Below the pieces are notes generated by a model. It did not search any database and was not told the DNA's origin. It worked only from the letters and a program-made list of their open reading frames with translations. Positions 23,003-52,887 of a DNA stretch of 64,000 nucleotides are shown here, one piece after another (within the stretch, counting starts at the first letter, position 1; every line of letters starts with the position of its first letter). The stretch is from the IMG/VR virus record IMGVR_UViG_3300008117_000049, positions 71,337 through 135,336 of that record; one strand, written 5' to 3'. The stretch comes from a virus. The position numbers and the translations under genes are program-made.

Positions 23003-23065
23003 CATCTCCATCCACTGGGCAAGTTTGCCTGGGTTGCCATTTTTTCTGTGCATTACAATAGATTC

Positions 23066-27157: not shown

Positions 27158-28984
27158 TTGGGCGTTTTCAGGCGTGATAAATCACCCGCAACAAATACTC
27201 CACAGCGTGGTATTCGTGCTTCTAATCCAGTAGCGAATACTCTCCCTGCTAACTCTGTTTTTCTAAAACCAGTTCCTAACGCTGCCCCGTCTGCCCCTTA
27301 CAACGCACCTAGAGCATTGACCGCTGCGGCTGCTCAACTAAAAATTGGCGACAAGTCCGAAGCCGAGCAATTCAAAAATCGTAGGGCAGCAGCGTCGTCT
27401 GCTTGGCAATCAGAAGCGTGGGAATACTACGACGCAATTGGTGAAATCAAATACGCTTTCAATCTTGTTGCTAGCGTTGTTTCTCGTATTCGTCTTTATC
27501 CAGCAGTAGTTTCTAATCCCGCTGAAAGCCCAAGTCCAATTAGAAATGTTGAAGCCTTTGACCAGCGTATTGTCGCTGCCGCTGAGCGTGCTCTAGCAAG
27601 ACTTGATTCAGCGTATGGCGGTCAGGCTGGTCTGCTAAAAGACGCAGCACTAAATCTCCAAGTAACTGGTGAGTGCTACCTAAGTCAAATTCCTCAACGC
27701 CCTTCAGATGGAACTCCAGAGTCTTGGGATATTCGTTCCGTTGATGAAATCACAGTTGATAGCAGAGCAAATGTTGTTATCAGTCCTAGACGAGAACTAA
27801 AGACCGCTGGTGGTGGAACTCAAAAGGGCGTTTATGTTTTGCCGAAAGGTGCGTTCATTGGTCGTATTTGGAAAGCACACCCACGCTTTTCCGAAGAAGC
27901 CGATTCATCAATGCGTGGAATTTTAGACTTGTGTGCTGAACTTCTACTTTTGAACCGCACATTCCGTGCAACGGCGCGTTCCCGTCTGAACGCTGGTGCG
28001 CTCTATCTGCCTGACGGTCTTTCGGTTGCTGCTAACCCAGACCCAGATTTCCCATACACAGATGCCGATGGTATCTACGACGGCCCTACTCCAGAGGAGT
28101 TGGAAGACGAATTTGAAGACCAACTTATGGATGCTATGACAACTCCTATCAAGGATGAAGATTCAGCGTCTGCCGTTGTTCCGTTGATTATTCGTGGACC
28201 TGCTGAACTTGGAGATAAAATCAAGCAGTTCAAGTTTGAGCGTTCATTTGACCCTGCTCTTGCTCAGCGTGCTGACCGTGTTCTTGAAAGAATTCTTCAG
28301 GGTCTAGATGTTCCAAAAGACATCGTTACTGGTCTAGCAAATGTGAAGTATTCAAACGCACTTCAAATTGACGAGGCTTTGTACAAGGCTCACATTGAGC
28401 CACTGATGTTGCTTATCGCCGACGCTCTTACAGTTGTCTATCTACGCCCATACCTACTTGCTAACGGATTTACCGAGCCAGAAGTAGAACGCATTGTTGT
28501 TTGGTATGACCCATCACAGGTTGCTACTCGCAATGACCGTGCCGCAGATGCGGACAGCGGTTTTGAGAAGATGGCAGTTTCGTTTGAGACTTGGCGTAGA
28601 GCGCACGGTTTCTCCGAAGCAGAGGCACCAAGCCCAACTGAAGTTGCGTTGCGTTTGCTTGTTGAAAAGGGAATGATTACTCCAGAACTTACTGAAGCAA
28701 TGCTTGGTGTTGTTGCTCCAGATGTTATGGAGAAAATCCGTGCTTCAGCACAGGCAGCACAGCCAACTCCAGCAGTTCCGGGTCTAGACCAAATGCTTCA
28801 GGGCGGTCCGCCACCTGAAGGTGGAGAAGCACCACCCGCTCCAGAAGAAGCACCACCTGGATTAGCAGAGCCAGGAGTAACCGAAGAAAGTGCTCCAGTT
28901 CCACCGACAGAAGAAGTCGCACCGCCACAGCCTATCGCTCCGTCAGACGCTACTCCGCCAGGCCTAGCCGAACCTACTCAGTAA
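27158..28984 (+). CDS. Portal protein
   Basis: Position after TerL, 608 aa, WQSEAWEYYDAIGEIKY as in actinophage portals; TTG start with RBS aaggag. Confidence 0.85.
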   Translation: MGVFRRDKSPATNTPQRGIRASNPVANTLPANSVFLKPVPNAAPSAPYNAPRALTAAAAQLKIGDKSEAEQFKNRRAAASSAWQSEAWEYYDAIGEIKYAFNLVASVVSRIRLYPAVVSNPAESPSPIRNVEAFDQRIVAAAERALARLDSAYGGQAGLLKDAALNLQVTGECYLSQIPQRPSDGTPESWDIRSVDEITVDSRANVVISPRRELKTAGGGTQKGVYVLPKGAFIGRIWKAHPRFSEEADSSMRGILDLCAELLLLNRTFRATARSRLNAGALYLPDGLSVAANPDPDFPYTDADGIYDGPTPEELEDEFEDQLMDAMTTPIKDEDSASAVVPLIIRGPAELGDKIKQFKFERSFDPALAQRADRVLERILQGLDVPKDIVTGLANVKYSNALQIDEALYKAHIEPLMLLIADALTVVYLRPYLLANGFTEPEVERIVVWYDPSQVATRNDRAADADSGFEKMAVSFETWRRAHGFSEAEAPSPTEVALRLLVEKGMITPELTEAMLGVVAPDVMEKIRASAQAAQPTPAVPGLDQMLQGGPPPEGGEAPPAPEEAPPGLAEPGVTEESAPVPPTEEVAPPQPIAPSDATPPGLAEPTQ

Positions 28985-28993
28985 GAAAGAAAA

Positions 28994-29467
28994 ATGCATC
29001 AGAAATTAGCAGAACATCTAGCAGTATGTTTAGCCGATACGGTTACATACAAGTTCATTGCTCACGGCTATCACTGGAATGTGAAAGGTCCTGAGTTCAC
29101 TCAGTTTCACGACTTCTTCGCAACACTTTATGAAGACGCTGATTCAGCAATTGACCCGTTAGCCGAGAATATTCGCAAACTTGGGTTTGACGCTCCATTT
29201 ACTTTAGAAGACTTTGCTTCTCTAACTTGCGTTAGCGTAAATCCAGTTTCAGGCGACCCGATTGAAATGAGTAGCAATCTATACGAAATAAATTGCCACC
29301 TTAAAGAGTGTTTAACAAAAGCGTTTGATATTGCCAACGCTTGTAATGAACAAGGAATTGCCAACTTCCTAGCAGAGCGTATTGACCAACACGCTAAGTG
29401 GGTTTGGCAAATAGGCACCACTATTGGTGCTGACTCAACCGTCATAACCAGAATCGAGTTCAAGTAA
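28994..29467 (+). CDS. dps: Dps/ferritin-like protein
   Basis: HWNVKGPEFTQFHDFF..LYE...DPLAENIRKLG. Confidence 0.92.
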   Translation: MHQKLAEHLAVCLADTVTYKFIAHGYHWNVKGPEFTQFHDFFATLYEDADSAIDPLAENIRKLGFDAPFTLEDFASLTCVSVNPVSGDPIEMSSNLYEINCHLKECLTKAFDIANACNEQGIANFLAERIDQHAKWVWQIGTTIGADSTVITRIEFK

Positions 29468-32400
29468 TGAGTGAATACGAAAACTTTGACCCTGTTGATG
29501 AAATAAATAAAATCATTGAAGGTGCCGACAGACCTGCTCTTCCATCTGTTTATGTGAAGAAAGATAAAACAAATGTTGTCATCGAAGGTACTGCTTTAGT
29601 AGCGTCAGCAAACAGCAAAACTCTTCCTAGCCGTAGAGTTGGAAGATTTGAAATGCTTGAAGTTCTAGAGCGAAGTCTCAACAGAACAGTCACCAATTTC
29701 AACAACCCCTCTCAAAGAGCGTTTACCGCAATGAGAGAATTATCAGACTTTGTGAATATGGCAACTACTGGCGCACAGCCAAAGATTGCTGGAGAACACA
29801 GAGACCTACTTCCAGTAGGACACCCCCTATCAACCAGACCAAACGACTTTTCTGAGGAAGAGTTGGCTCAAGCCCGTGCTGAGTGGATGTCGGCAGACCC
29901 TAGAATTGCCGAAGAGTTCCGCCCATTAGTCGCTACTGCTTTTGTTACACCAGAAGAGAGCGTAGAGCGTGAGTATCTAATAGCAAAGTTGGAAGCAACT
30001 AACGCTACCCAAGTACCAAGGGATATCATCCTCGGCTTGACCGCCGCTGGAAACCCTTACGCTGGGGGGAACTCTTTTTTAGCACGAAGCGCCAGGGCTA
30101 GGGCTCAGCGCCGCGACAGAAGAGGTCGCTTTGCTTGGATGGGCGGTGGAGCCAGAGTATGGCTCGGAAAATTATTTGACGCAGTATCTTCTTTGTTCAG
30201 ATTTGCTGGATACGACGCAAAAACAGATTCGTTTGACCTAGAGGGCGTTCCAGGTAGCCCTTACTTTGGAAAAGTTATTAGCGTTCCCGCTTCACAAGTA
30301 GAAGCGATAAAAGCAATTCTTCCAGACAGTTTAGGGTTGCCAGAGCCACGCTCAAAGAGCGTTGCTAAAAATTTAATTGTGGACCCAAGCACTTTACAAC
30401 TAAAAGATGCTCCAACTGGTTGGGAAAAAGTTTCTAGCGAAAACGGCGTTGATGTTTTCCGTTCCGCTGATGGTTGGATAGCAACTCGCTATCCTAACCT
30501 TGCCTCAGCACCAAAAGAGAGTAGCATCACTCGTACTCGTGGTGCTAATTCTGATAAAAGCATAAATCCAGACCTACCCGTTTATCACATTGCCCAAGGT
30601 TCCGCTGACGGAACGGTAGTTGATAAGCCATTTGCCGTGGCTCAGGGGTGGGGTGACGCTCAGGCGTTGATTGCTCGCTATGATAAGAAACTTTCTCCTA
30701 GCAAAAAGAAAGCCGAATTAGATGAACCACAAGAGCAAGGATTTATAAAAGGCTGGAAAAAGCAAGAAAGAGGCTACATACCAGCGGATTATAATCCTTA
30801 CGGATACTACGCTGGGGGCAGAGATGTCGCTATGGGAAACGATTCTTATACAGACCCTAGTGGCCGATTTATTGCTGTATCTATGGCTCCTAAAAAGCAA
30901 GAGCAAGCCAAAAATGTTAGAAAGCAAGTTCTTGAAAGTGGGAAGCCAATTGAAACTTTTGACGGTGCTAAAGACTGGGATGGCGATGTAAGCAATTTAT
31001 GGAGACTTGAAAGAGTAAGAAGCGACGGTAAAAGAGAGATACTTGGCTACTACCAAGATACCGAAGACATTGAGCGTGATACTGAAATTCCAAAAGACCT
31101 AGAACAAGGACAAGATTTCTACGAAGAAATAATTGCCAACACATTGCAGTGGGGCGGAAACTCGGTTGATTTTGTTGATGGAAGTAATCCAGACCAAGGA
31201 TATTTAGTTGCTCACGAGGCTGATGTTGTGCAACCAGATGGAAGCGTAAAAAAGCGTGAGCAGTTAGTTACTCCAGAAGACTTTATGGACCCAATCGAGG
31301 GGCCAAAAATTCTTCGTGCTTATGCTTTAAAAAACCAAGAAAAACTTATGGAAAAAGGTTTTTATCTTGGAACTTGGACAGACATGGTTGAGGTGAAAGA
31401 CGAAAATGGAAATGTAATTGACAAGAAAGAAATGGTCTTTCTAGATGTCAGTGAGTGGATAAAAGATTTTGATGATGCATTTGACGCTGGAGAAAAACGA
31501 GGCGAAATTGCTATTTTTGGTGCCTCAGAGGGCAAGAGTTATTACATTGAAGTTGAAAAGCGTAGAAGAGAAACAATACGAAATACTCCAGTTCTAGATA
31601 AAGAAGAAGATAAAAGAGTTAGGGAAGAATCCGACAGGATTACAGATGAAGAAAATAAGTGGTTTAGAGATAATTATGCAGTTTGGCAAAACTTTGAGCG
31701 TGATACTGGAATAGGATTTTTTAAAGACGACGGTTCTCCAAATCCAGAAGTAGCAAAAGTAAGTCCAGAAATTTATGAACACCTAAAACGCAGAGACGAC
31801 GCTGAAAAAAATAGAAATTCTGTATTCCAAAATTACATTCGTTCAGTTTTTGAAATGGCTGACGGTATGGACCCGGGCGGGAAAAACAACGGACTTGCTG
31901 TTAATCAAGGTTTATTAGACATTAGAGATAGGTATGTCGGCGACGATGAAGCAACTCTAAAGATGAACGCTGGTCTCCGAGAAGGTCAGGTTGCTAGTTC
32001 TAAAGTAAAAAGCGTGGATAGGCTTGTAAATAAATCTAAATTAAAACAAAACACCGTGCTGTATAGGGGGGCTTGGCTAGACCCTGAGTTGGTAAGTCAA
32101 ATAGAAATTCAGGACTCTTACTTTGACAGAGGTTTCCAGTCTTCTGGACTAGATGTAGACACCGCAACAAGTTATTTAGATTTTAGAGCCGAAAAAAGTC
32201 AAGGCAAAGAAAGAGTTGTTTTTAGAATTCTTGCTCCGCAGGGTATGAATGCTATACATGTTGGCGACGATGAAGTAATTATGCGTCGCAATACAAAAAT
32301 GACTATAATTAGAAAAACTAAGTTAGATGACACAACATACATTGATGTGGATATCGAACCTCAAACAAAGGAGCAAATAGATGTCAGACTCCAAGGACTC

Positions 32401-35400
32401 GTCAAAGGGCCACGACCTGAATCTAGTGAAAGTCCCGGAGAACTTCTCCCAGATGACGGAGGAGGAGCAGATGGCTTGGGCGAAGGAGGCCCATTCGAAG
32501 TTAATTACGCGCCTCTCCCCACCACAAGACCAGACTCAGAAAGAGTAACTGACCCACAACTAGCAATTTGGCTAAGACTTTCTAAAGATGTACTGGGAGT
32601 AAGTCTAAACGGCATAATTGACGAGGCTATTGCTATAAATCAAAACAATGACCCAGAAAAACACTTGGCTAAAAGGCTAAAAGCAAATGTTGCTAAATCT
32701 CTAGCAGAAAAACTCAAGGATGTTGACGACAAAGAGTTTGTAAGAGTATTAGATGATTTGGGGGTGTTCTCTGGACTATCTAAACACATGGACTGGTCTG
32801 AGCCTAAAAAACTTCAAGAAGTAATTTTTTATAGTCTAGATGCAAGAAAAGAAGTTGGTGTAAACCTTAGAGCAGAATTTGCTAATGTCTTGAGATGGGC
32901 TACGACAAATAATGATTTTTATAGAGAACAGAAGGAACTCGTTGACAAAATTAATTCTACTAAAGAGGTAACTCTTGAAGAAGCACGACTAATTCTTGAT
33001 GCCTATAATGAAAATGGTCGATTAGGCGGATTTACTCTTTTCAAAAATCTTATTCTTCCAGACAGTGATAATAGAGAATTTTTAGATGCTGTTAGGTATA
33101 CCGCCGTTTCAAGCCTAGTTAGTCGATGGGCATCCACATCCAACGGTTCGCATGTTTCGTCTCTTGCTATTCAAGAAGTGGCTAGAAGACAGTTTGGCAT
33201 TAGAGGTTCAGCCGAATGGAATAACGGAATCGGTATGGAGATACAGGTTAAAGATGTTGCTGACAAAAACAGAAACTTGATTGGAAGATTTTTACAAGCC
33301 CAGTATGACCTCACTCAAGAATATTTCAAGAAAAAGGGTATATCTAAAATAACTCTCTATCGTGGAGTCAAAAACTTCAAGGCTCACGATATGCCAAAGA
33401 CCACTTCCTCAACAGAAAATGGCATTTCAGGAGCAGTAAGACTAAGACCTTTATCATCTTGGTCGACTTCAGAGGGGGTAGCAATTGGGTTTGCTAGGGG
33501 AGAAGACGGAAGAGTATTCCGTAAAGAATTTGATGTAAAAAACATATTTTCTATGCCAGGCTTTGGTAATGGTTGTTATGAAGAAAAAGAAATGGTAGTT
33601 CTAGGTGGAGTTGTAGATAGCGTTGATATAGGAACCTACAGTGTTCTAAACACTCGTGGAGAAGGTAGTCCAGTCAAATACCCATCTCCAGAGCCACAAG
33701 CCATTACTTACGAATCTCTTCCAAACTTACTTCCAGACTTGGGATTAGAAGTAAATTACGCTCCTTCGCGCCGTGACTCTAGACTACTAAACGACGCAGA
33801 AAGAAATGAAATTGCGCGACACCACCCAACAGAAGCAATTTGGGTATCAATTGCCGAAGACTCCACTTTCCACAAAAGGGAGATGCCACTTACTCTAAAA
33901 AATTCATTGGAATTCCACGACAGAGAGGCAATTCGCACTGGTCAAATAGGAACTGGTCCTATGGGCGAGGGGACCGTAGAACTAGCAAGGGCTTTGAAAA
34001 AGGGTGTGGCACAAAACCTTGAAAATAAAATGTCTTCTGTTGAAGCATCGGAGTGGGCAGAAACAGCAAATCTTTTCAAAGACTTGGGCATAGTCGTCAA
34101 CTTTCCTAATGATGAAGAGAGCAGTCAATATGGAGTTGTAAGAGCACTTATTAGTTCTTGGGCTTTTACTTCAAACGGCGACGAGCCTTTATCTTTAGCA
34201 ATTCAAGAATTAGCCAAAAAAGAATTTGGAATTGAAAAGGCGGCTGATTGGGAAATTAGCCCAGAGAAACAAGTAAAAGTAGATAAAATTTTAGAAACTA
34301 GCGAAAACTTAATTAGAAAGTTTCTAAGGGCTCAATACGACCTTACTCAAGAATATTTCAAGCGTAAGGGAATAAAAAAACTTACTTTGTTCCGTGGAGT
34401 AAAGAAATTTAGTAACCACGAAATTGTAGAGTCTACTTTTCCTAACGGTGGAAAATTTACCGCAACTTTGGGCCTTAGACCGTTATCGGCTTGGACTACA
34501 AGCAGAAGAATTGGAACAATTTTTGCCAACCGCTACGAACAAAGTAGGTTGTTCCGCAAAGAGTTTGATGTAAAAGATATATTCTGTTTCCCTGGCACTG
34601 GTTTTGGTTGCTTAGATGAAAGAGAATTTGTTGTTCTTGGTGGAAACACTAAAGGCATAGATGTCTCTAGTCAAAGAGATATGAGCCCATTAGGAGGAAT
34701 GAGTGATGCTTTTAACTTTGAAAACAGGGCAGCCAATTATCAAGTTGTATTTGATAGCGATGTTGAAAGTCCGCTAGACCAAATTGCTGAAAGTGGATTT
34801 AGACTTGGCGAATGGGTTAACTATGCTCCTGAAAGACTTATTCGGCCAGAAAGAGACGCAGTTGCTGACATAACCTCGTTTGACCCCACAGACGAGATAC
34901 CTAATTCTCCAAAAAATGCTGGCGGAATGACACGAAACACTTGGTGGGCGTGGGAGAGAGGTCCTGACGGAAATCAATTCATTGACTACATGCGTCAACA
35001 GGCTTGTCGTTTAATTGGACTACCAGTTCCAGAAACTGAGTTTGATAAGGGCAAGGGAAGCCACTTTATGCTCCAAAGAGGCTGGGGTGCTCCGGGCGAA
35101 AAAGCCATAAAGGGAATGGTAAATGCTATTGCAAATGGTCGCCCTCAACCGCCACTATATCGTGGGTTGGCAAACGGATATGGCGAAAACGCTTCTACTC
35201 CAGAATTAGAAAGACTAAGAAGCGTTAGAGAGGGCGATACGGTTGATATGCCACTTGCTTCTGCCACGCGCTCACCCGGAGTTGCCACTTGGTACGCAAC
35301 TAATAGGGGCACAGATAGGGGTCCTATAATTCTAAAAATTAGAGAAGGTGCTAATGGAGTGTCTCTCTCTAAAACTAACTCATTCTACCCGCACGATTAC

Positions 35401-38400
35401 GAAACTGTAGTAAACGGAAAGTTTAGAGTAGTCGGCAACCAAACCGTTCTTACTCCAGTTTGGTCAAGAGATTATGTAAATATTTTTGACACTGAAGACC
35501 GCCCAGCAGAGGGTATACCAATTCTTCGTGGGCAAGTACCAGAAGATTTGCTAAATGAAATACGAGAAGCATTGATAAAAAATCCAAAAGACGATTTATC
35601 ACGCTTCAACACCGATACGTTGAAATTTACTAACGACAGAAATAGAAGCAAATACTCCATTCCAATTTCAGTTTGGATGTTGAGCGAACCAAAAGAAATT
35701 CAAGTAATTGAGTTGGAACAAGAAAAAGTTTATAGCATTGACGAAAACAAGCCTGAATCTAAAAATGACCAGCCAGAAACATACGAAAATGTGGAACCAT
35801 TTTTTGCCGAAAAATTAGAGGCTAATGCTGAAAAAGCGCCACTTGACTCTCCAGCAGAAGGTTTTATAGTAAGTTATGCCCCACTAAATCTAACTGGTCC
35901 TCAAAAATTAGTAAGTTCAGATGTCCCAGAACCTAAAATAACTGGTCCTCAAAAATTAGTAAGTTCAGATGTCCCAGAACCTAAAAAATACGGAAAAGAT
36001 TTAAAAAAGCGCGAACAATTATTTAAAAAATATGAAGAAGCAGAAAATAAGTTAGACAGAGCCAGAAAAGAGATTTTAGACAAAGAGCGCGCGGCGAGGA
36101 GGGCTAACGGAGGTGCCTACCGACCACTACCGTATAAGTACGATATGGATGAAAATGGCAGATTAGTGCCTAATCCTCGTCTTATAGACGAACTAGGAAG
36201 AAAGTATTTTAATTTAGTTCAAGACTTGGCTGATTCCATAAACGCTCTGAGAGATTTTGATAAGAAATTTATTGAAAGCAAGTTTGAATTATCTGTTGGC
36301 GGAGTTATACCAAATCCGCCGTCAAGGACAGAAATTACAAGTCCGGGAGATATTTGGCAAGGACTAAAAAATGTCAGAAAAGAATCGTTATATGCCATAG
36401 GCGACTGGGGCGCAAGTGAGACATCAAGACAGGTACTAGCCAGCACAAGAGGTAGTTATGTCTATAACAAGAGTATGAAACCTGAATTTGTTTCTAGAAT
36501 TTCTCCACTAATATCTCAATCAACTTTAAAAGAAAATACTCAACTTCACAGAGGCGAGTGGCTACCAGAAAATATAGTTGACGCTGCCGAAGTGGGAGAC
36601 TCAATTTATTTTGACAATATACAGGAACTGAGTTTGTTATCTGATGTGCCTAACAAACAATTGCTTCGCAGGAACGGCGACCAATTAGATAAAACCTATT
36701 ATTTCAACAAAGGCAAAAAACCAGTGGTTCTTAGATTGAACTGCCCTAAAGGTATGAATGCTTTATATACAAAAAATCAAGCAGACGAAAGTGAAAACTT
36801 TAGCGATATTGATGCTGGAAGAGATAGAGAAGACGCTATGGTGCAAGCAGTTCTTTTGCGCCCAGATGTAAAAATGAAATTAGTAAGTAAAACCGAAAAA
36901 GACGGAGTTACTTACCTTGAGTTTGATGTAGAGCCAAAAACAAAAGAAGAAATTGAATCAAATAAAAGTGGCTTAATCAAAAAAGACGGTCAAGTAGTAG
37001 AACAAATAATGCCACAACCAGAGGACCTTGGCGCATTAGAAACTCCTGAAGGATTTATATTAGGCAACGACGCTCCGATAGAACCAGATAATAGATTAGT
37101 AGTAAATTACGCCCCTAAAAACAAAAATAAAGGCGCTGGTCTTGCTAAAGAAGTTGAAAGAAGACAAAAATTAGCGGAAGCACAAAAAAAGATACAAGGA
37201 GAACTTAAAGAAAAGCAAGAAAAAGAAAAAGAAATTCTTAAAGAAAGGATGGAGGAGCAAAAAGAAGAGTTAGCACAAAAAATTCCAGAAATTGCTCAAA
37301 TGCTACCGTCGTCTCCACAAGATTTACTTGACCCTAATCAGCCGTTAAATATTTTGGGCTCTACAGACATTACTCAAGAAATTTTTAATGTGCCTGGCGG
37401 TGACGACCCAGAAAAACCAAACTCAATTCAAATTTTAGAGCCTAATCAAGTTTGGAAAGATTTAGTTTCAACAATGGAAGCATTGGGTTCTGCTGCTTCT
37501 GATGATATTGAAAATCAAGTAAATGAAAAATTTGCTGAAACAATTAAAGATTTAAATGCTCAAAAGAAGCAAGTAAAAGCGTCTAGAGATGAAGCAGAAT
37601 TAGGATTAAGAACACTAGAAAGAGCAGCCCAGCAGTTAGAAAACTCAGCAATTCTAAATAATTTTGGGGCTAATAACAGTCCTGTGCGACAAAGTATTAT
37701 AGATACGGCTTTAAGTTATATCAATGACAAATATTTTTTAAAAGACCCTAACGCCCCAGATTTGGTTTGGAATAGTGATTTTGGTGCTTTTGCTCAGTGG
37801 GCTGTAAAAAAGAGATATCCAAATATATCGAAAGACGAAGCCCTCACAAAAACATTGGCATTATTAACAGCCGCCAACTCTCACTTAATTGAAATTGCAA
37901 AAATGCCAGACTCTGCTCAAAGAGACGCAGAAGTAAAAAAAGTTATTGCAAAAATGATGTTAGGAACTTACTTTACTCAAACATGGGAATCATTTTTTGA
38001 TGCCGCGCATAATTTAAATGTTACTAATAACCCGAACTCTGCGGCTTGGGAAGCGGAATTGTCCGAAATTATTGGCAATAATCCAATACCTGATTATAAC
38101 CAACTTGCTAGGAATTTGTTTAATAAATTAGAAATTTATGAAGATAATAAAAAGAATTACAAAAAAGCAATAACAGATTTTTCTAAAAAGGTGCATGATG
38201 AAATAATTAAACCAAAATTAGAAGAGTTAGGAATTGTTTTTGGCCATAGTGTCACTATAGAACCAAGAGAAATAAACTATGTTGGAAAAGGTTCCCTTGG
38301 TCATGATGCGAATCGTAACCCCGTTTTTGTTCCTAATCCTTCAATTCGGGCTACTGGTGATTTAACAGATGCTAGAGGGTATGCTTCTATTTTGACTGAA

Positions 38401-39204
38401 GCAATACAAACCTTACCTTACCCGATTGCTTTGCTAGTAAAAAACTTTATAGCAAGTAATGATGTTATATTTTTTGCCACAGATAGAGGAAATTTTAGTT
38501 ACCTGCCTAAAGATAGGAGTACCTATAGTTTATCGGGCAATCTTTCGCCGCAAGATGCGTTTATGTCACTTGGTCTAGATGGGCCAGATGAAGATGATTC
38601 AAGTGGCAGACCGATACCGGGTAGTGGTAGGAAAAGGGCAGTGAGCGTTGCGGCACATGAACTGACTCATATGATGATACAAGCATTATTTCCAGAACTT
38701 AAGCCAGCGGAGTGGGCTGTTTTGGCTCGTTTTATAACCCAAAGGGATGCTAACGGAAATCTAATTCAAAATCTTGTAAACGGAAATCTTGGAGACACGG
38801 TTTTGAGCAGTGAAATAACTAATCTTACACCAGCAAGTTTGCTTGCATTATTAAGCAACGAAGAAGTGTCGGTTTTTGCTCCTGAAATTTCCACTCCTTA
38901 CTCTACGCAACATCAAAAAGGTTCTAAAAAAGTTGGTGGAGTTCGCGGGCTAAATCCGTTTCTTCATGGAGAGTTTTTCTCAACTCTAACTCAAGCCATG
39001 TTTTCGGGGGACCCGACCATTATGTATCCAGGAAATCTTGTTAGTCCTGGAGATAAACTTAGAGTAGGTTTTAACGCAGACGGAACACCTAAATACTTTA
39101 CTATACCAGATGGTCCGATTTTTAATGCTGGTGCCTTGCCAGTGGGTATAGTATTATCTTTATTAATGAATGAATTAGCAAAACAAAAGCAAGGAATACC
39201 ATAA
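29467..39204 (+). CDS. 3245-aa polyvalent head-module protein: five ADP-ribosyltransferase-like domains and a C-terminal HExxH zincin
   Basis: L(Y/F/H)RG motifs with S-x-S/T and E motifs at about 32.0, 33.3, 34.4, 35.2 and 36.5 kb; HELTH at 38656; V(N/S)YAP separators. Confidence 0.8.
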   Translation: MSEYENFDPVDEINKIIEGADRPALPSVYVKKDKTNVVIEGTALVASANSKTLPSRRVGRFEMLEVLERSLNRTVTNFNNPSQRAFTAMRELSDFVNMATTGAQPKIAGEHRDLLPVGHPLSTRPNDFSEEELAQARAEWMSADPRIAEEFRPLVATAFVTPEESVEREYLIAKLEATNATQVPRDIILGLTAAGNPYAGGNSFLARSARARAQRRDRRGRFAWMGGGARVWLGKLFDAVSSLFRFAGYDAKTDSFDLEGVPGSPYFGKVISVPASQVEAIKAILPDSLGLPEPRSKSVAKNLIVDPSTLQLKDAPTGWEKVSSENGVDVFRSADGWIATRYPNLASAPKESSITRTRGANSDKSINPDLPVYHIAQGSADGTVVDKPFAVAQGWGDAQALIARYDKKLSPSKKKAELDEPQEQGFIKGWKKQERGYIPADYNPYGYYAGGRDVAMGNDSYTDPSGRFIAVSMAPKKQEQAKNVRKQVLESGKPIETFDGAKDWDGDVSNLWRLERVRSDGKREILGYYQDTEDIERDTEIPKDLEQGQDFYEEIIANTLQWGGNSVDFVDGSNPDQGYLVAHEADVVQPDGSVKKREQLVTPEDFMDPIEGPKILRAYALKNQEKLMEKGFYLGTWTDMVEVKDENGNVIDKKEMVFLDVSEWIKDFDDAFDAGEKRGEIAIFGASEGKSYYIEVEKRRRETIRNTPVLDKEEDKRVREESDRITDEENKWFRDNYAVWQNFERDTGIGFFKDDGSPNPEVAKVSPEIYEHLKRRDDAEKNRNSVFQNYIRSVFEMADGMDPGGKNNGLAVNQGLLDIRDRYVGDDEATLKMNAGLREGQVASSKVKSVDRLVNKSKLKQNTVLYRGAWLDPELVSQIEIQDSYFDRGFQSSGLDVDTATSYLDFRAEKSQGKERVVFRILAPQGMNAIHVGDDEVIMRRNTKMTIIRKTKLDDTTYIDVDIEPQTKEQIDVRLQGLVKGPRPESSESPGELLPDDGGGADGLGEGGPFEVNYAPLPTTRPDSERVTDPQLAIWLRLSKDVLGVSLNGIIDEAIAINQNNDPEKHLAKRLKANVAKSLAEKLKDVDDKEFVRVLDDLGVFSGLSKHMDWSEPKKLQEVIFYSLDARKEVGVNLRAEFANVLRWATTNNDFYREQKELVDKINSTKEVTLEEARLILDAYNENGRLGGFTLFKNLILPDSDNREFLDAVRYTAVSSLVSRWASTSNGSHVSSLAIQEVARRQFGIRGSAEWNNGIGMEIQVKDVADKNRNLIGRFLQAQYDLTQEYFKKKGISKITLYRGVKNFKAHDMPKTTSSTENGISGAVRLRPLSSWSTSEGVAIGFARGEDGRVFRKEFDVKNIFSMPGFGNGCYEEKEMVVLGGVVDSVDIGTYSVLNTRGEGSPVKYPSPEPQAITYESLPNLLPDLGLEVNYAPSRRDSRLLNDAERNEIARHHPTEAIWVSIAEDSTFHKREMPLTLKNSLEFHDREAIRTGQIGTGPMGEGTVELARALKKGVAQNLENKMSSVEASEWAETANLFKDLGIVVNFPNDEESSQYGVVRALISSWAFTSNGDEPLSLAIQELAKKEFGIEKAADWEISPEKQVKVDKILETSENLIRKFLRAQYDLTQEYFKRKGIKKLTLFRGVKKFSNHEIVESTFPNGGKFTATLGLRPLSAWTTSRRIGTIFANRYEQSRLFRKEFDVKDIFCFPGTGFGCLDEREFVVLGGNTKGIDVSSQRDMSPLGGMSDAFNFENRAANYQVVFDSDVESPLDQIAESGFRLGEWVNYAPERLIRPERDAVADITSFDPTDEIPNSPKNAGGMTRNTWWAWERGPDGNQFIDYMRQQACRLIGLPVPETEFDKGKGSHFMLQRGWGAPGEKAIKGMVNAIANGRPQPPLYRGLANGYGENASTPELERLRSVREGDTVDMPLASATRSPGVATWYATNRGTDRGPIILKIREGANGVSLSKTNSFYPHDYETVVNGKFRVVGNQTVLTPVWSRDYVNIFDTEDRPAEGIPILRGQVPEDLLNEIREALIKNPKDDLSRFNTDTLKFTNDRNRSKYSIPISVWMLSEPKEIQVIELEQEKVYSIDENKPESKNDQPETYENVEPFFAEKLEANAEKAPLDSPAEGFIVSYAPLNLTGPQKLVSSDVPEPKITGPQKLVSSDVPEPKKYGKDLKKREQLFKKYEEAENKLDRARKEILDKERAARRANGGAYRPLPYKYDMDENGRLVPNPRLIDELGRKYFNLVQDLADSINALRDFDKKFIESKFELSVGGVIPNPPSRTEITSPGDIWQGLKNVRKESLYAIGDWGASETSRQVLASTRGSYVYNKSMKPEFVSRISPLISQSTLKENTQLHRGEWLPENIVDAAEVGDSIYFDNIQELSLLSDVPNKQLLRRNGDQLDKTYYFNKGKKPVVLRLNCPKGMNALYTKNQADESENFSDIDAGRDREDAMVQAVLLRPDVKMKLVSKTEKDGVTYLEFDVEPKTKEEIESNKSGLIKKDGQVVEQIMPQPEDLGALETPEGFILGNDAPIEPDNRLVVNYAPKNKNKGAGLAKEVERRQKLAEAQKKIQGELKEKQEKEKEILKERMEEQKEELAQKIPEIAQMLPSSPQDLLDPNQPLNILGSTDITQEIFNVPGGDDPEKPNSIQILEPNQVWKDLVSTMEALGSAASDDIENQVNEKFAETIKDLNAQKKQVKASRDEAELGLRTLERAAQQLENSAILNNFGANNSPVRQSIIDTALSYINDKYFLKDPNAPDLVWNSDFGAFAQWAVKKRYPNISKDEALTKTLALLTAANSHLIEIAKMPDSAQRDAEVKKVIAKMMLGTYFTQTWESFFDAAHNLNVTNNPNSAAWEAELSEIIGNNPIPDYNQLARNLFNKLEIYEDNKKNYKKAITDFSKKVHDEIIKPKLEELGIVFGHSVTIEPREINYVGKGSLGHDANRNPVFVPNPSIRATGDLTDARGYASILTEAIQTLPYPIALLVKNFIASNDVIFFATDRGNFSYLPKDRSTYSLSGNLSPQDAFMSLGLDGPDEDDSSGRPIPGSGRKRAVSVAAHELTHMMIQALFPELKPAEWAVLARFITQRDANGNLIQNLVNGNLGDTVLSSEITNLTPASLLALLSNEEVSVFAPEISTPYSTQHQKGSKKVGGVRGLNPFLHGEFFSTLTQAMFSGDPTIMYPGNLVSPGDKLRVGFNADGTPKYFTIPDGPIFNAGALPVGIVLSLLMNELAKQKQGIP
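32381..32548 (+). CDS. Putative overprinted 55-aa protein in the +1 frame of the giant ORF
   Basis: AAGGAG 7 nt before ATG; MSDSKDSSKGHDLNLVKVPENFSQMTEEEQMAWAKEAHSKLITRLSPPQDQTQKE. Confidence 0.5.
   Translation: MSDSKDSSKGHDLNLVKVPENFSQMTEEEQMAWAKEAHSKLITRLSPPQDQTQKE
35891..35985 (+). repeat. 48-bp-period in-frame tandem duplication
   Basis: TGPQKLVSSDVPEPK twice, identical at the DNA level. Confidence 0.95.
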
Positions 39205-39434
39205 TGGCAGAAAACGAAAATGAAGAAGTAATCTGGTCTGAAACCGACAACGAAAACGCCGACTGGATAAAGTCGCTTTCTTGGGATTTACCGACTGAGC
39301 CAGAAGAGTTTCTAAGGTCTCTAGGTGGAACCAGCATTGAAGACTTTTTGAAATTGCCAGCAGCCAAGGCTATGCCAGCCGAACTGCTAAACGAACTAAT
39401 CAAGTCTGGGCACATAAAGCCAAAAGGTGTCTAA
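39204..39434 (+). CDS. Small acidic protein, candidate immunity factor
   Basis: Translationally coupled to the ART polyprotein; NADWIKSLSWDLP. Confidence 0.7.
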   Translation: MAENENEEVIWSETDNENADWIKSLSWDLPTEPEEFLRSLGGTSIEDFLKLPAAKAMPAELLNELIKSGHIKPKGV

Positions 39435-39728
39435 ATGAAAGTCACTTTTCCAGATGGAAGTTATCTAAATTATTATTTTTATTTAGACATAAAGCCAGAG
39501 TTTCTAGATAACGACAAGTGTTTGGCTCTCCGCGCTTGGCTTGATTGGCGTATGTTGCTACTAGATAAAGGCACAAAAACTTACAGATTTGATAAATTTC
39601 TGGCAGACATGGAAGTGAAAAGCGACGACCCGCTATTCTTCAGAATGTTTATAGAAGAGAATTTTGTAATGGTCAAATTTGAGGGTGATTTAGTTCCAGA
39701 AATCCCTGAAAAATATAAGACTTTTTAA
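39435..39728 (+). CDS. Small hypothetical protein, candidate immunity factor
   Basis: Abuts the previous gene; 97 aa. Confidence 0.65.
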   Translation: MKVTFPDGSYLNYYFYLDIKPEFLDNDKCLALRAWLDWRMLLLDKGTKTYRFDKFLADMEVKSDDPLFFRMFIEENFVMVKFEGDLVPEIPEKYKTF

Positions 39729-39831
39729 TTTATTGTAGAATAGAACAAACCTAATAAATAGGTTATCAGACGCGCTGCTATACTTTTTATAGAATATCCG
39801 CTCCTCTATAACCAATCAGGAGAAGTTTTTA

Positions 39832-42800
39832 ATGACCTACTATAACTCTTTCGGTATAGAGTTTGAATGTGACGAAACCCAAGAAGGTTTAGTAGCGGCA
39901 GGTAATCGCTGGACATCTGGCGGAAACTCCACCCTTGCTCGTCGTGCTCGTGTAGCACTTCAAAGGCGTGACCGTTATGGTCGTTGGGCCGAAATGGGTG
40001 GCGGTATTTCGTTCCCTGGCCGTTTAGGAAACGGAACTATTGAAAAATTTGTTGGTCGTTATGTCGGTCCCGCTGAACGCCCAGACTATATGCGGGTCTA
40101 TGTCACAGAGGCCAGAAGACCGGGTATCTACGAAGTCCCTTCCCGAGTTGCTACGGTTGCTAAGGCACTTCTAAGCAAAGAAGCACTTAAAGATGTTGGC
40201 GTAAATCTAGATGTTAACGGAAACCGCGTTGGCGAAATTCTTGACAGAGACATTGAGTTTATTGACCAAATGTGGAAAGGCAACAAGCCTACCGATTTTG
40301 AACTTAGTATGGCTCGTGGCGAAGTATCAAAGCCAGAAAAAAGAGTTATTGAAAAGGCTCGTCTAAGAGCACCTAAGCACAAGTCCTACAACATTGTTGA
40401 TGAAAAAGGCAACAGGATTGATAAAGACGAAGAGCCAGCAAAACCAGATGTAAAAAAGCCTAGCAAAAAGGCTAAGCCAGCCGAAAAGTTCCCAGTTCCA
40501 GACACAAGCCAGTGGGATGAAAAACGCCAAAGCAATGATGTTTGGTATGAAAAAGACGGTAAGCGTATTCCAGATGAAAGACTAACTGAAGCCGATAAAA
40601 CTCCAGAAAATAAAAGAATTTATATTCGCGAAGGGGAAAAAGGCGAAAACGACAAAATTATTGATGGAAATGGAAACTTAATTGAGTTTAAGCCTAGTCT
40701 TAAACCAGAATCTAGTCCAATTCCAGAAAAACTTCCAGAGCATGACCCAGAAGAGGGTTTTTGGAACAAAGCCAGAGTAAGACGAGAAGAAGTCCGTAAA
40801 AATTTAAAGACTCCTCAAGAAATTTACGAAGAATTATATAACGGTGGTTTTGCTGAAGCAGATTTAGACAAAGCAATAGCAGCCTGTGATTATGCGCTTA
40901 GTCAGCAGAAGTACTTAGGTAGAGACGAAAACCCACTATATGCGTCAAATCCAGATGACCCAAGACTTAGACACATAGCAAACTTACTTGAGTCCCTACC
41001 AGAGTGGCAAGAATACAGAATTAAGCGTGCCATAAATCTTAGATTTATGAACGAGGAAAATATTGATGAACTAAAGGCTTGGGTAGATGGGAAAATAGAG
41101 CCCGGCTCTCCGTTATCACCAGAAGATATGGTTGAACTTCACCGTAAGTTTAGGAATCTTGCGGTTGACATAACCAACCTAAGAATTTCTGGAGAAGATG
41201 CTTTTAGCAACGACAACCTCGGTGCTGAGCGTATCAATATGCCACAACTTGATGAAAAAAACCTGCCTCTATTTTTACGAGACATGGCAAGAATTGGTGT
41301 TGGTCACCGATACACAAGAATGATGCCAGACCAATTACACCCTGTTCAAATGGAAATGGACATGGGCGATATTGCCAAGATTGCTGAGTCTTGGAAAGAC
41401 ATTGAGTTATTCAATAAATTTAACCCACACGAAAACCCAATTGTTATATCAAGAGATGGTTATGTTCTTGACGGACATCACCGCTGGGCTGCTGCTTGGC
41501 TAGCCCAAAAAAGAGGCGACAAACTTGCCCTTAAGGGTCTAAAAGTAGTTCAACTTGACATAGACCACGAACAAGCATTAACGATTGCTAACGAGTGGAA
41601 CGACTACGCTGGAATTCGCAGGATAACCGTTGGTGGTAAGGATGTTAGAGAGCCTAGACCACAAGCCCCAGCAGTTCCGCAAGCCACTTCTAAAATTACA
41701 TCACCGTCTGCTACTCCAGATTTGCCGCGTGTTAGCCCTCAGCCAGATTTAGTAGTAAATTATGCTCCTTCCGACGACAATTTGTCCACCCCAAGCGGAG
41801 AAAACTTTAAGAGTTTTCTTGACAGGGAACTGGCAAATGTCGGCGACAAAATTATTCCAGACTTTGGTGACCGACTCACAGAAGATACTCCCAACCCAGA
41901 GGATAGGAATAGCCCGTTCCCTGGCTCTCGCACAGTTGTAAATAATCTTTTGAAGTATAGAGACTCAATGATAAAAGCAATGAAAGAGAGTGCTTTAGAC
42001 CAAGACCAAGAAAAATTTAGATATCAATTTGAAATTGCTAAAAGAGTCACAAAACTTTTAAATCAAATACACGAGAATTTTTCTAACAATAAGAATTATG
42101 CTGCCGATACTGAATTATCAATTAGTACTAGCAACCCAGAAGAAAAACTAAAAACAGTTAGAGTTCTTCCAAACACTGTTAGATATGGTACCGACAACAA
42201 TGGTATTAGAAAAGTTCAGTACTTTGAAGCAATAATTATTGCTAAAAATGGAAAACCTTACATGGTTAAGTGGACACCAGACCACTCTCACGCCCACAGC
42301 ATCGACAAAAACGGAATTGTAAACGACAGTAACGATGGTGGAGGTATTTCATTTAACGGTGGACAAATGTATGACGAAATTGTTGATGGAAAACCAGTAC
42401 CTAGAATTGCCAGTGTTGGTGGGGCATTTACTAACGACGGACACCACGCTTTAGGTTTAGCAAGTGCTCACATAAACCTAATTAGGTGGGTACAAAGCAT
42501 GTTTGGCGGAAGGCTCAAGCATAGTTCAAACTTAAGTGCTAGAGGAAACCCATACTCAAAGATGGTTTCTAGAGACATGCGTTGGCACGACAGAAGTCAA
42601 GCAGACAAGGCAGTTCATATGAGTTGCCCAAACGCTACTATTTTTAAAGTCCTCAAAGATATGGGATTAATTAGCGGTGAGTATATTCCAGCAACCCCTG
42701 GAGCAAAACAAGATGATGACACTCCGGGCGGTTACGGGGCTCACAGCGGTGGGCGCGGTTGGCTAAGAAGGCTCACATTTACCAACAACTCTGGTTACTC

Positions 42801-45800
42801 AAGTAATGTATCTGTCTTAACAAGTTATAGCATTAACGATGAGGTCAGGGCTTATGACGGAGAGTTCTTAAGAAAAACTCCAGAAGAACAACAAGCGATA
42901 CTTGACGCTATGCCTCCAATTTTTAGAGATTTCTTTGCTGGAGATAGGTCTAGAGATAGCATAGGCCGAACCGCTGATTTTGATGTTCAATATAAAATAT
43001 TGGAAACTGCTTATGCTGACGGAATGAAGCAACAGGAAGCAGTAGATTTCCTAGACAGTTTAATTACTGGGCTACCAGAATTAGATAGAGCATTTGGCAG
43101 AAATGCTGACCACAGAGAGTTGCTTAGACGCTTAAAGCAACTAAGAGATGGAATTAGTATTGGATTTTGGAACCAAAGCGACAACAATTACAATAGGCCA
43201 AAATCTTTTGACCCAAACAGTATTAGAGCAATTGAATCTCCATTTGCTGGCTACTTTAAATTTAATGATTGGGTTTTGCCAAGAGATGTAAATAGAGTTC
43301 TAAACGATTTACCATTTAGTGCTAGACCACACAGAGGAGGCTGGTCAAAACCAGATGGTTGGACAGAAGAGCCACAAGCACTAAAAGACCTTTACGGTCC
43401 AGAAATTTTGCTTGCTTCCTTGCGCGACGCTCTTTTGAACAAAAAAGGTAAATCTGCCAAACTTCCAGACATTAATGGGGAAGAAAATACCGTTGACCCA
43501 ACAGCAGTCTATAAAGCACTAGAGAATAACGGATATGACACAGAACTAATTCTTGCTGGCATTTACGATGAACTAAACGGCAATTCGGTAAATACTGAAA
43601 AGTTGTTAGCAAAAAGACAAGAACTTGGAAATCTGCAAGGCATCATAGAAGAAATAACTAATGAAATAGCAGATGTAAAGGCTCCAATAGAATTTTCTAG
43701 AATTGGCGGAGAGTATGACTCAGAAAGTAAAGTTCTTCAGTCTGACCTAGTTAGGCGTGGAGAAACTGGAGAAATTCCTACAGCACTCCAATTAAGACCA
43801 CTTTCTTTGGATAACGAAGCATATGATTATCTAGGTCCAACTGGTGCAAGAACTCAAGTAATTCTTTCTCAACATCACACTCCAGAAATATCAATGTCTC
43901 GTTATTACATTGATGGAGTATCAGACAACCCAAAGGTTATTGCTAGAAACTTTAACCCAACTGGCCTAAGAAATGCTCTTATTGACTCAGTTACAAAGAA
44001 TAATTACGCTGTAAAACTTAGGTACCCTAACGGACAGACCATAGATGTTCCAAACAATGCTATTCGAGATGCTTTACAGTACCAAGGGTATGACATAAAT
44101 ACCGTTTTAAGAGAAGAACCTAGTCTAAAACCTAAATTAAAAAGAATTAGTAGCGTTTCTGACAGGGAGAACGCAGACGGTAATGGCACCAGAATTAGCG
44201 AGTGGGCCATCTATAATTCAAGTGGCGAAGAAATTAGACTAAACGGTCCTGGCATTAGACAAAAGAGGAACGACACCACAGGGGAACACGAGTGGGATGT
44301 AGTTGATTTATCTAGTCCGCAAGATAACAGAACAATAGTTGCCAAATTAGCAAAAGTCAAGAAAAATGACGAAGGCAACTACGAAGTTTGGGTGGCAAAT
44401 AGAGCCGACAACAAAACAGATGAATTTTCTGGAGAACCTAGCGGTGTTTATGAAACCTTACAAGAGGCTTTGTATGATGTTAAGAACCACATCTCAGACG
44501 ATGCAAATATAGATGCATCTACCAACCTGCTAGGCCAAGGAAGAGCGCCTACAGTTAGTAACGGTTTTGCTATTGTTGGTGGAGCAAATGATGAGGCAGA
44601 AGTTACCGTTGGTGATTTAACATTACAAAGACCAGACGGTGCTGAAAGTTTTGTTGTTTTCTCTAACGGTGCTGGAACTGGCAGATTTAGAAGAATTTCT
44701 ACTGCTCGTATTGAAAACAACACAATTGGCACGGTTTATACCGCAGAAACTTATTCCGTAGGAGAAGATGGCGGGAAAATTGAAGCCTTTGATTTGGTCA
44801 GAAAATCTTTCATAGGCTCTGACCCAGTTAGAAAACAAAGAATTTATGAGATTGCAAAAACTAATCGTGGATTTGAACTTACAACTCACAAATATCATCC
44901 AGATGAGGGTGGCGTAACTAGGACCGAAACACTTGTATTTGATAATTACGAAGATGCTAAAGACTATGCCAATAAAAAATTATTGGCTGGTCATATAGGA
45001 TTACCTGGAGAGAAAGTATTTCCTAATCTTTCTGTCAGACAAGAAAGAGTTCCTGCTAGTGCGGATTTGTCAAATCAAAACATATTCCAAGACAACTCTT
45101 CTATTCAAATAAATACTCCAGTAAAAATGACTGACGGAGTTAAAGGTCTTTTAAAAATCAATGTTAAGAAAGGTGCTCACCCTACTTGGAGAAACGGCGA
45201 GGACAATCAACAGTATGTGTTTGCTGAATTTAGTTTTGGCAATGAGCCAGACGAACCTCTTATCACTGGTAAAATTACTAGAACTGGAGTAAGACAGTGG
45301 GTAACTGTTTCCTCAACAAATTCACCAAGTTTTAAAGAACACGCAATAAGTTCAATATTAAGAAATGGTACTTTCTTTGCTAACAGTAAAGAAGAGGCTT
45401 TTGAAAGCCTAAAATACAGACTTGAAGAATCATTTGGCATAACTAATCAGCAAAGAGCCGACGGTCAGTCTGTACTACCTAGAATCAGACTTGTAAATAG
45501 GGCTGTTAAACTTGAGCCACCACCGCCACCGCCAGCCCCAGAAGATAAAAGCCTTTTTGCAGATGGCGTTTTTGACGACTTCCTAAGAGTTAGAAATACC
45601 CCGCTTGATATTACTGGTGCAGAAGATAAAGGCGGTATGGGTCTAGGACAATCTGGTTCTAGAAAATATGAATTACCAGATGGTAGAAAGTTTAAAGTAA
45701 AAGATGAGGGCGCTAGAAAAGCAGCGTCTGAATCACTGAACCATGCTCTACATTTAGCACTTGGAATTCCAGCAACTGAAGCAAGAACTGGAAAAGCACC

Positions 45801-52200: not shown

Positions 52201-52887
52201 ATGCCACAAAACCCTGAGTTCACTCTCAACTCAGACACACTTGGAGTTGTCTATAAAGACACTGGTGTGCTTGAGGCGTATGACTCTGTTGAAGCCGAAA
52301 CCCCTAGCGAAACTCACGCTATTATTGGGGCTTATTATGAGCCATCTGGTCAATACAAAGGTTTGTATTTTGTTCTACCAGAGGGCGAAATAAAGTATTT
52401 TGACATAGATGTAGTAAAACTAGGCAGTCAAAACGACGGTGCTTACATAACTTTTGAGGGTGATGGAAAGTTTTGGCTAATTAGAGGTTTAGAGCAAGAA
52501 GACGGTCTCTGGCTTTCTAAATACAAGATGGAACTTCCTACCGAAGTTTTACAGCAACTTATAGTTGGTAGGTCAAAGCCAGCACTTACCAAATATCTTG
52601 GCGTAAATATTCCAGACACTTTACCTGAATTTGAAACTTTGCTTGTTTATTTTTCTGAGGCATCTAAAAACATTTTTGCTTTGAACTATATGTCTTCTAT
52701 AGGTAATTACACTCGCCTTGACTACGATTGGGAGAGTAGTGAAGTATCTTATGACTACTATGAAGACCTAGCAGTTGCTGAAATAGACCCAGAAAAAGCC
52801 AATGAATTGTTGAAAAAATTTGACGATGCAGATGGTCTATTTCCAGTTCGAGAAATTCTAAAAACTTATGAAGTTGGTGGTAAGTAA
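52201..52887 (+). CDS. Hypothetical acidic protein
   Basis: RBS ggag; 228 aa; coupled to the next gene. Confidence 0.8.
   Translation: MPQNPEFTLNSDTLGVVYKDTGVLEAYDSVEAETPSETHAIIGAYYEPSGQYKGLYFVLPEGEIKYFDIDVVKLGSQNDGAYITFEGDGKFWLIRGLEQEDGLWLSKYKMELPTEVLQQLIVGRSKPALTKYLGVNIPDTLPEFETLLVYFSEASKNIFALNYMSSIGNYTRLDYDWESSEVSYDYYEDLAVAEIDPEKANELLKKFDDADGLFPVREILKTYEVGGK

Follow-up and report, generated by a model that had tools for sequence, protein, structure and literature searches.

A five-residue tag marks the cassette joints of a giant ADP-ribosyltransferase-bearing protein in an uncultured freshwater phage

The protein considered here, giant 1 (P0001; 3245 residues; 29467–39204, + strand; delimited by its open reading frame (ORF), translation, alignment, and BLAST architecture against relatives), is encoded in a 64,000-nucleotide stretch of DNA from an uncultured freshwater phage, referred to hereafter as the window (bases 71337–135336 of the 135,336-bp virus record IMGVR_UViG_3300008117_000049 in IMG/VR, which carries direct terminal repeats). 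A five-residue word, V(N/S)YAP, designated as the junction tag, is present at every cassette boundary of giant 1. The tag is real and under protein-level selection, is specific to its lineage, sits in linkers, and coincides exactly with the points of cassette gain and loss. All large ORFs of the window, and all coordinates given below, are on the + strand.

The junction tag in giant 1 and giant 2

The tag begins at residues 1012, 1429, 1784, 2135, and 2546 of giant 1 (tag 1, VNYAP, 32500–32514; tag 2, VNYAP, 33751–33765; tag 3, VNYAP, 34816–34830; tag 4, VSYAP, 35869–35883; tag 5, VNYAP, 37102–37116), and at residue 642 of the next large protein, giant 2 (tag 6, VNYAP, 41755–41769). An earlier, sequence-only reading of the window had listed these six occurrences in giant 1 and the next giant; a six-frame search of the window with V[NS]YAP and NYAP recovered the six and no others. 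The same reading had given 29467–41769 as the extent of the polyprotein; this is corrected here, as the giant 1 ORF ends at 39204 and 39832–41769 belongs to the next gene. VNYAP is the commonest 5-mer of giant 1, and a relaxed regular expression has 6 matches in P0001 versus 0.18 expected (300 shuffles); the sixth, ANNSP at residue 2735, is inside a predicted helical region and was treated as chance. The back-translated pattern of VNYAP, GTNAAYTAYGCNCCN, gives 5 forward and 0 reverse matches in the whole 135,336-bp genome, and the reversed-pattern control gives 0. The six tag 15-mers vary at third codon positions (GTT/GTA, AAT/AAC, TAC/TAT, GCG/GCT/GCC, and CCT/CCA). The codons thus vary synonymously, and the tag is therefore conserved at the protein level, in agreement with what had been proposed.

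With residues 800–2600 of giant 1 as the query, 15 of 6097 candidate proteins passed a threshold of E ≤ 0.001. P0003 represents a cluster 99% identical to P0001 and is not independent evidence, whereas P0004–P0012 share 36–55% identity with giant 1 over the best local alignment. Each of the latter contains 2–5 copies of [VILMA][NS][YNF][AGS]P versus 0.06–0.15 expected by shuffling (2–6 copies versus 0.06–0.16 for P0003–P0012, i.e., when the near-identical P0003 is counted), and P0013–P0017 contain zero copies. Across the relatives the tag takes the wider form (V/I/L)-N-(Y/N)-(A/G/S)-P, and its recurrence in P0004–P0012 far above the shuffled expectation bears out the conservation on which the sequence-only reading depended. 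P0017 shares a DRAT-like cassette with giant 1, yet it has no tag and bears 11 [LF]SSG sites versus 0.16 expected.

Seven related loci were found in IMG/VR, and a metagenome scan returned the same three contigs as IMG/VR and nothing further. The orthologs of giant 1 at these loci carry 5 (L008), 1 (L009), 4 (L010), 3 (L011), and no (L012) tag copies. Within a genome, the two giants agree in having or lacking the tag: of four genomes compared, the window, L010, and L011 have it in both, and L012 in neither. Synonymous variation is also seen in the DNA around the tags of L008 and L010. A logo of 45 non-redundant tag-anchored sites, one of which (IANGP, from giant 2 of L010) probably arose by chance, reads (L/I/F)-(P/Q)-(V/I/L)-N-(N/Y)-(A/G/S)-P-(K/I), with the information content of its five core columns inflated by the selection of sites through a regular expression. 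Information falls to about 1 bit in the flanking columns, where P, G, D, E, and Q are enriched. Two copies in tandem (VNNAP-ISNAP) often precede the tail module.

Cassette insertion and loss at the tag

As judged from BLAST searches with segments of the window, the full-length relatives all keep the head (residues 1–1011, comprising the leader, the N2 region, and the ADP-ribosyltransferase (ART) module ART1) and the tail (a helical module and an HExxH domain). Between them lie 1–4 cassettes drawn from a small set, mostly of ART type. The order is [M2][M3][M4][M5] in the window, [M4][M2][M2-like] in P0005 and L010, and [M2][M5][M2-like] in P0011 and L008; a single cassette is found in P0012 and L011 ([M2]), in P0013 and L012 ([M4]), and in P0014 (ART1-like).

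Three pairs of relatives show clean tag-to-tag cassette indels. P0005 and P0009 are 90–98% identical except for one 337-residue indel, corresponding to the M4 cassette, which starts 3–4 residues after INYGP and stops 3–4 residues after LNNSP. A 392-residue cassette is present in P0008 and missing from P0012, with QPQIQVNNAP on both flanks, and P0004 is longer than P0009 by about 440 residues, from LNNAP to VNNAP. With these three pairs, the module swaps at the tag that had been suggested as a check on the sequence-only reading were indeed observed in relatives.

Location of the tags in linkers

Two AlphaFold2 models were built from shallow alignments (4 and 5 rows), covering residues 1740–2600 and 2530–3245 of giant 1. 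In the former, tags 3, 4, and 5 (model residues 45–49, 396–400, and 807–811) show no secondary structure, with a predicted local distance difference test (pLDDT) score of 23–24 in the 10-residue blocks beginning at the tags (about 24 at tags 3 and 4). They are found within low-confidence segments of 49–94 residues (1–94, 350–436, and 773–821), and the folded parts have pLDDT values of 60–87. In the latter model, tag 5 is again in coil (pLDDT about 27; 23–27 over both models), ahead of a 55-residue helix. For the three sites together, the coil pLDDT values span 23–29. A perfect tandem duplication of a 48-nucleotide unit (two copies, 35891–35986; 16-residue unit, TGPQKLVSSDVPEPK-type) lies 8 nucleotides after tag 4, and P0003 has a single copy of the unit and is 16 residues shorter. 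Since the duplication is tolerated there, the linker location of tag 4 is independently supported. Homologous domain cores begin 8–17 residues past the tag, e.g., at SFDP in M4. Altogether, the models and the duplication place tags 3–5 outside the predicted folded domains, as the sequence-only reading would require, and are supportive of, rather than decisive for, a position in flexible linkers. Another linker element, PDDGG(G/D), precedes tag 1 (LPDDGGGADGLG; at about 32440–32500 of the window), and in relatives it follows later tags (IPPDDGGDEPELDIF).

ADP-ribosyltransferase modules

ART1, a C3/Vis-like module (31867–32499), contains LYRG at residue 865, FQSSG at residue 890, and GDDEV at residue 933, such that the R, S, and E are all present. 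Its profile, built from 8 sequences, matched Vis (4xzj_A; E, 1.2e-6) and C3larvin (E, 0.0024) in the PDB, as well as Tre1-type effectors; Pfam ADPrib_exo_Tox fell below the cut-off (E, 0.02). Searched as a whole, giant 1 matched Pfam DRAT (PF07357) with 45.7 bits against a cut-off of 25, no other Pfam family at E up to 0.1, and none of the PHROG families. Cassette M2 (32515–33750) consists of a helical N-terminal part and the DRAT-like ART2 (LYRG at residue 1297, LSSWSTS at residue 1329, and EEKEMVV at residue 1372), which alone scores 25.4 bits with Pfam DRAT (E, 9.9e-6). Cassette M3 (33766–34815) is a paralog of M2 (47% identity; E, 3e-54) with ART3, which alone scores 18.8 bits, below the cut-off. 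The Arg, Ser, and ExE residues of the DRAT-like cassettes (R288, S319, E362, and E364) are invariant in 8/8 aligned sequences. The M2 profile gave no match in the PDB, and no close relatives of the M2 cassette were found in IMG/VR.

Cassette M5 (35884–37101) comprises a helical part and ART5, a paralog of ART1 (BLAST identity, 29%; E, 2e-20) without the catalytic Glu. Because the column of this Glu is not conserved in the alignment, ART5 is probably inactive. The model of ART5 (613–751) is similar to Tre1 (6drh_B; Z-score, 7.3; root-mean-square deviation, 3.2; 95 aligned residues), and VsdC, SpvB, and Vis also match. Foldseek found no match in the PDB at E ≤ 0.001 for either of the two models. 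Taken together, the assignment of ART1, ART2, ART3, and ART5 to ART folds or families is supported, as had been read from the motifs: by the Vis/C3larvin profile matches for ART1, by DRAT for ART2 and ART3, and by the BLAST and fold matches for ART5, whose missing Glu was also confirmed.

For the remaining ART named in the sequence-only reading, ART4, the motifs stood and the wider support did not follow. It is contained in cassette M4 (34831–35868), with LYRG at residue 1897, LASATRS at residue 1930, and HDYETVV at residue 1976, and these R, S-x-T, and D-x-E motifs (LYRG, LASATRS, and DYE) are conserved in 3/3 sequences. M4 has no Pfam match, its profile found nothing relevant in the PDB, the matches from the fold search did not cover its region, and in hhalign comparisons with the ART1 and M2 families the probability did not exceed about 1%. 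A weak lead was obtained in the ESM Atlas, which placed the cassette closest to phage ADPrib_exo_Tox clusters at a score of 0.95, although its recognition value did not reach the mark of the tool. ART4 is thus regarded as a candidate ART on the strength of its motifs. The N2 region of the head (600 residues) gave no usable match in the ESM Atlas.

Helical module and HExxH tail

Tag 5 is followed by a module predicted in the AlphaFold2 model to form a long helix or helical bundle (37117–38247) and by a C-terminal, zincin-like HExxH domain (38248–39195; HELTH at residue 3064, nucleotides 38656–38670). His3064, Glu3065, and His3068 are invariant in 9/9 aligned proteins and in 5/5 tails, and the downstream Glu3133 and Glu3169 are invariant alongside them. 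In the model of residues 2530–3245, the HExxH motif is located in a helix after three strands. In a fold search of the tail against 48,161 representative chains, the tail domain as a unit was matched only by anthrax lethal factor, through its catalytic domain (Z-score, 6.0, with a tool that warns that values under 8 are common; root-mean-square deviation, 4.5–4.7 over 166–167 aligned residues; rank 7; model 399–714 versus chain 573–778). A second look at the fold matches added other entries of lethal factor and, at a Z-score of 4.1, the light chain of botulinum neurotoxin E (BoNT/E). The profile of the tail found flagellin alone among PDB sequences (E, 0.78), and Pfam gave 0 families for the copy in the window and Peptidase_MA_2 (E, 0.052) for 1/5 members. 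The C-terminal zincin proposed in the sequence-only reading is thus weakly supported, by the invariant HExxH motif and a middling fold match and by no Pfam or PDB sequence match; we describe the tail as possibly zincin-like. Its family is rare, with 16 representatives at E ≤ 0.001 among 1.84 billion, and the tag co-occurs with both zincin subtypes.

A different motif in the head proteins

A second motif, phi-(T/V)-A-(A/S)-(G/A/S), occurs at 12 sites, namely 7 in giant 3 (see below), 2 in the capsid protein, 2 in the leader of giant 1, and 1 in giant 2, against 0.18–0.23 expected by chance per protein. In the leader region of giant 1 (29593–30054), the sites are ALVASAN at residue 43, invariant in 9/9 aligned sequences, and LTAAGN at residue 191; they are followed by GGNSFLARS..RDRRGRF..MGGG, a leader motif common to both giants. 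The site in giant 2 is at residue 20 (39889–39903). Those of the capsid protein are at residues 209 and 315, and alignments with the capsid proteins of Arthrobacter and Gordonia phages start at residues 214–218. The same code is found at equivalent places in phages DSL-LC01 and Big4, with ALVASGG in the capsid protein of each and 11 sites in gp76 of Big4, and N[YN][AGS]P is absent from these two phages. It is probably the prohead-protease code of the whole phage group.

The core N[YN][AGS]P is also absent from giant 3 (P0018), the capsid protein (P0019), and the 228-residue ORF product (P0020). As the capsid, the protease–scaffold protein, and the leaders are marked by a different and older motif, the tag is a second code. 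It does not follow the pattern of a head-maturation code, in which the same motif would be found in capsid, scaffold/protease, and cargo. The distinction drawn in the sequence-only reading between VNYAP and LxAAG sites is thereby maintained.

P0031, a distant giant of 2258 residues, starts at the residue equivalent to about residue 194 of giant 1, just past LTAAG. It has the leader motif at its very N-terminus, an HExxH tail, and no tag; its modules between leader and tail differ in appearance, as judged by eye.

Giant 2 and a complete relative

Giant 2 (P0002; 4108 residues; 39832–52158), the second cargo protein, has a ParB-like domain (41329–41625; Pfam ParBc_2, E, 0.0038, below the cut-off; PHROG ParB-like, E, 0.001) directly before tag 6. 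At the position of tag 6 after this domain, the orthologs have PNYGP (L010), LNRAP (L011), or no tag (L012). A possible seventh, relaxed site, R-NNAP (residues 3655–3659; 50794–50808), is located in a Pro/Ala-rich linker, and its counterpart in the complete relative G001 (135,069 bp) is ANNAP.

Giant 2 of G001 has 4227 residues from its ATG, and an extra cassette (P0035) is joined to its end through the tag word. The giant 2 frame stops two codons after a C-CCA-AAA slippery-type heptamer (L020:13206-13212), from which the –1 frame is open for 388 codons (L020:13188-14354; G001:C1:125187-126353), overlapping the end of giant 2. The –1 frame has no start codon in its first 186 codons and begins with ..GGGLG-INYSP-I... 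This extension may reflect programmed –1 frameshifting or else a misassembled C6A4 run, and the cassette is joined through the tag word whichever the origin. The extra cassette matched nothing in Pfam or the PDB and is missing from the genome of the window.

Genome setting

The order of genes is terminase (23048–24457), portal (27158–28984), ferritin/Dps-like gene (28994–29467; Pfam Ferritin, E, 1.6e-15; PHROG 'DNA binding protein'), giant 1, two small ORFs, giant 2, the 228-residue ORF, giant 3, major capsid protein, and major tail protein. The ferritin/Dps-like gene sits between the portal gene and giant 1, and the gap between portal and giant 1 is similar in size in L010–L012. Giant 3 (P0018; 1757 residues; 52887–58160) combines portal/MuF-like, prohead-protease-like, and scaffold-like parts (PHROG head maturation protease, E, 6e-56; Pfam Peptidase_S78 no better than E, 0.061). 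The major capsid protein (58305–60317) is nearest to that of Actinomycetia phage DSL-LC01 (63%), with large Microbacterium, Arthrobacter, Gordonia, and Mycobacterium phages also matching. No DNA-level relative was present in the phage collection. The best explanation is that the virus is a 135-kb actinophage-like phage and giant 1 a 'polyvalent' cargo protein of its head module. Giant 1 is encoded between the portal and the protease–scaffold/capsid genes, i.e., among virion or packaging genes, and because of the gene order, giants 1 and 2 are at the usual locus of head-internal/ejection and 'polyvalent' proteins. Judging from gene position, they would be packaged in the capsid and ejected into the host.

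Possible role of the tag

We propose, with an even chance of being right, that a site-specific protease recognises the tag. The flexible linkers between the cassettes would be cut at the tag by this enzyme, and the effector magazine would thereby be split into separate cassettes. A trans-acting, lineage-specific reader fits, because the tag goes together in both giants and P0017 uses [LF]SSG instead. The zincin and the prohead protease are the protease-like domains found, with no others. The polyprotein's own zincin-like domain is the leading candidate for the reader, though on its own an unlikely one, and the prohead protease or a host enzyme are the alternatives. A further elaboration, which we consider unlikely in its entirety, would have two keys. 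The prohead protease would read phi-(T/V)-A-(A/S)-(G/A/S), maturing the capsid and stripping the leaders, and the giant's own lethal-factor/PPEP-like zincin would read (V/I/L)-N-x-x-P, dismantling the magazine into single ARTs, possibly only after ejection into the host. The tag would then double as a plug-in joint, such that cassette swaps leave the processing undisturbed. In a complex prediction, the HExxH domain with Zn and a 42-residue tag-bearing linker gave a score of 0.00, which, obtained without controls, speaks neither for nor against binding.

Several points weigh against cleavage at the tag, or against the zincin as its reader. Five relatives (P0013, P0014, P0027, P0031, and L012) keep the HExxH tail without the junction tag, their equivalent linker positions being degenerate, and the zincin is therefore independent of the tag. 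Giant 2, with 4108 residues and many domains, has one clear tag, so that cutting is not needed for the handling of a giant protein as such. The identity of the tail depends on the middling fold match described above, which is weak. Both AlphaFold2 models are of low confidence (mean pLDDT, 44.7 for residues 1740–2600 and 59.5 for residues 2530–3245) and cover tags 3–5, with tags 1 and 2 (residues 1012 and 1429) outside them; as their alignments are shallow, the 'disorder' at the tags is partly a product of these.

The tag might instead be a short linear motif that is never cut. It could serve as a hinge by which interference between modules is avoided, or as a docking peptide through which all cassettes bind one shared partner (e.g., capsid interior, portal, chaperone, or host protein). 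We regard this as rather improbable. Such a motif would share the features of a cleavage site (short, in a flexible linker, conserved at the protein level, and lineage-specific), and both the tandem copies before the tail module and the tolerance of about 3400 residues without a clear tag in giant 2 would be readily accommodated. However, one copy per protein would suffice for targeting, a separate N-terminal leader motif is already common to both giants, and the homologous cassette in P0017 uses a quite different joint word, which fits the specificity of an enzyme better than a hinge. Self-cleavage driven by Asn was rejected, because several sites have Ser or Ala in place of the first Asn (VSYAP, VSNAP, and VANAP) and no single nucleophile is therefore conserved.

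It is very unlikely, in our estimate, that the tag is a mere scar or joint of cassette shuffling by recombination, kept by descent and devoid of a biochemical role, even with the three tag-to-tag indels, one flanked by 10-residue direct repeats, and the additional G001 cassette that the same word connects to giant 2. The codons for the five residues vary synonymously in the window and its relatives and so offer little DNA homology to recombine on; the five residues are kept in proteins that are only 36–55% identical and whose flanks retain no more than about 1 bit per column; and unrelated modules (ParB-like, M4, M5, and the helical tail) all bear the tag. As a recombination joint, the tag remains compatible with a role in cleavage. 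Finally, the tag could act on the ribosome. Its (A/G/S)-Pro end would delay peptide bonding, so that translation pauses between modules and folding during synthesis is aided, or at the extreme the chains would be separated in the manner of viral 2A 'StopGo' peptides. The resemblance is formal only (2A peptides end in N-P-G↓P, and SecM-type arrest peptides in a small residue followed by Pro), and the conservation is indeed at the level of peptide and not of DNA. The upstream nascent-chain context is not conserved, however, and we know of no such mechanism in bacteria; this reading is barely credible to us.

Comparison with known systems

MARTX toxins are giant polypeptides with effector domains split by linkers, which an in-built cysteine protease cuts after delivery. 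Giant 1 likewise has several effector modules separated by linkers. It differs in that delivery would be by a phage capsid, the hosts being bacteria, and no C80-type cysteine protease was found in giant 1 by Pfam, in which DRAT was the sole family at E up to 0.1. In T4, phiKZ, and SPN3US, one short motif directs the cutting of capsid, scaffold, and cargo, including injected proteins such as T4 Alt. Their prohead proteases process head, internal, and ejection proteins, as described in PMC10052503 and PMC5694885. Unlike in these systems, the word used at the cargo joints here does not occur in the head proteins.

Anthrax lethal factor is a member of the M34 metallopeptidase clan. So is the zincin PPEP-1, a Pro-Pro endopeptidase, which cuts (I/L/V)-N-P↓P-(A/I/V)-P, several consecutive copies of which occur in its substrates; PPEPs are secreted enzymes of Firmicutes (PMC8610288). 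The first two positions of this site match the (V/I/L)-N of the tag, Pro follows soon after in both, and the compact-domain fold matches of the giant 1 tail are all zincins. On the other hand, no sequence similarity was detected, and around the presumed scissile bond the tag has Y/N-A/G/S where PPEP-1 has P-P. The resemblance is a lead and not a family assignment.

Close counterparts are the polyvalent proteins of Iyer, Burroughs, Anand, de Souza, and Aravind 2017 (PMC5512222), giant multidomain effectors encoded beside virion genes in phages and conjugative elements. They contain ART domains and a C-terminal zincin-like metallopeptidase, with processing predicted before packaging, inside the head, or after injection; T4 Alt is described there as a packaged ART (PMC5512222). 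Giant 1 resembles them in having five ART-type modules, a helical module, and an HExxH domain, and in its place among virion genes. It differs in that its HExxH tail matches no Pfam peptidase model by sequence, and in the five-residue word at each joint with the exchange of cassettes there, no junction sequence being named in the relevant passages of PMC5512222. We found no cutting signal for phage polyvalent proteins in print, and a full-text search for the tag strings gave unrelated matches only, among those listed. The tag system is a real, lineage-specific variant of the polyvalent proteins predicted to be processed, and cleavage, the best-supported mechanism, is proposed here by analogy with them. 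The 2017 prediction was that polyvalent proteins are split into individual effectors, and the tag, a statistically unambiguous word at every cassette joint, offers a direct handle on it. If the tag is indeed cut, the delivery of several independent ARTs from a single gene would be accounted for, as would the reshuffling of the effector set among phages of abundant freshwater actinobacteria that are close relatives of one another, and the tag word could then help to delimit uncharacterised effector domains in the giant proteins of metagenomes.

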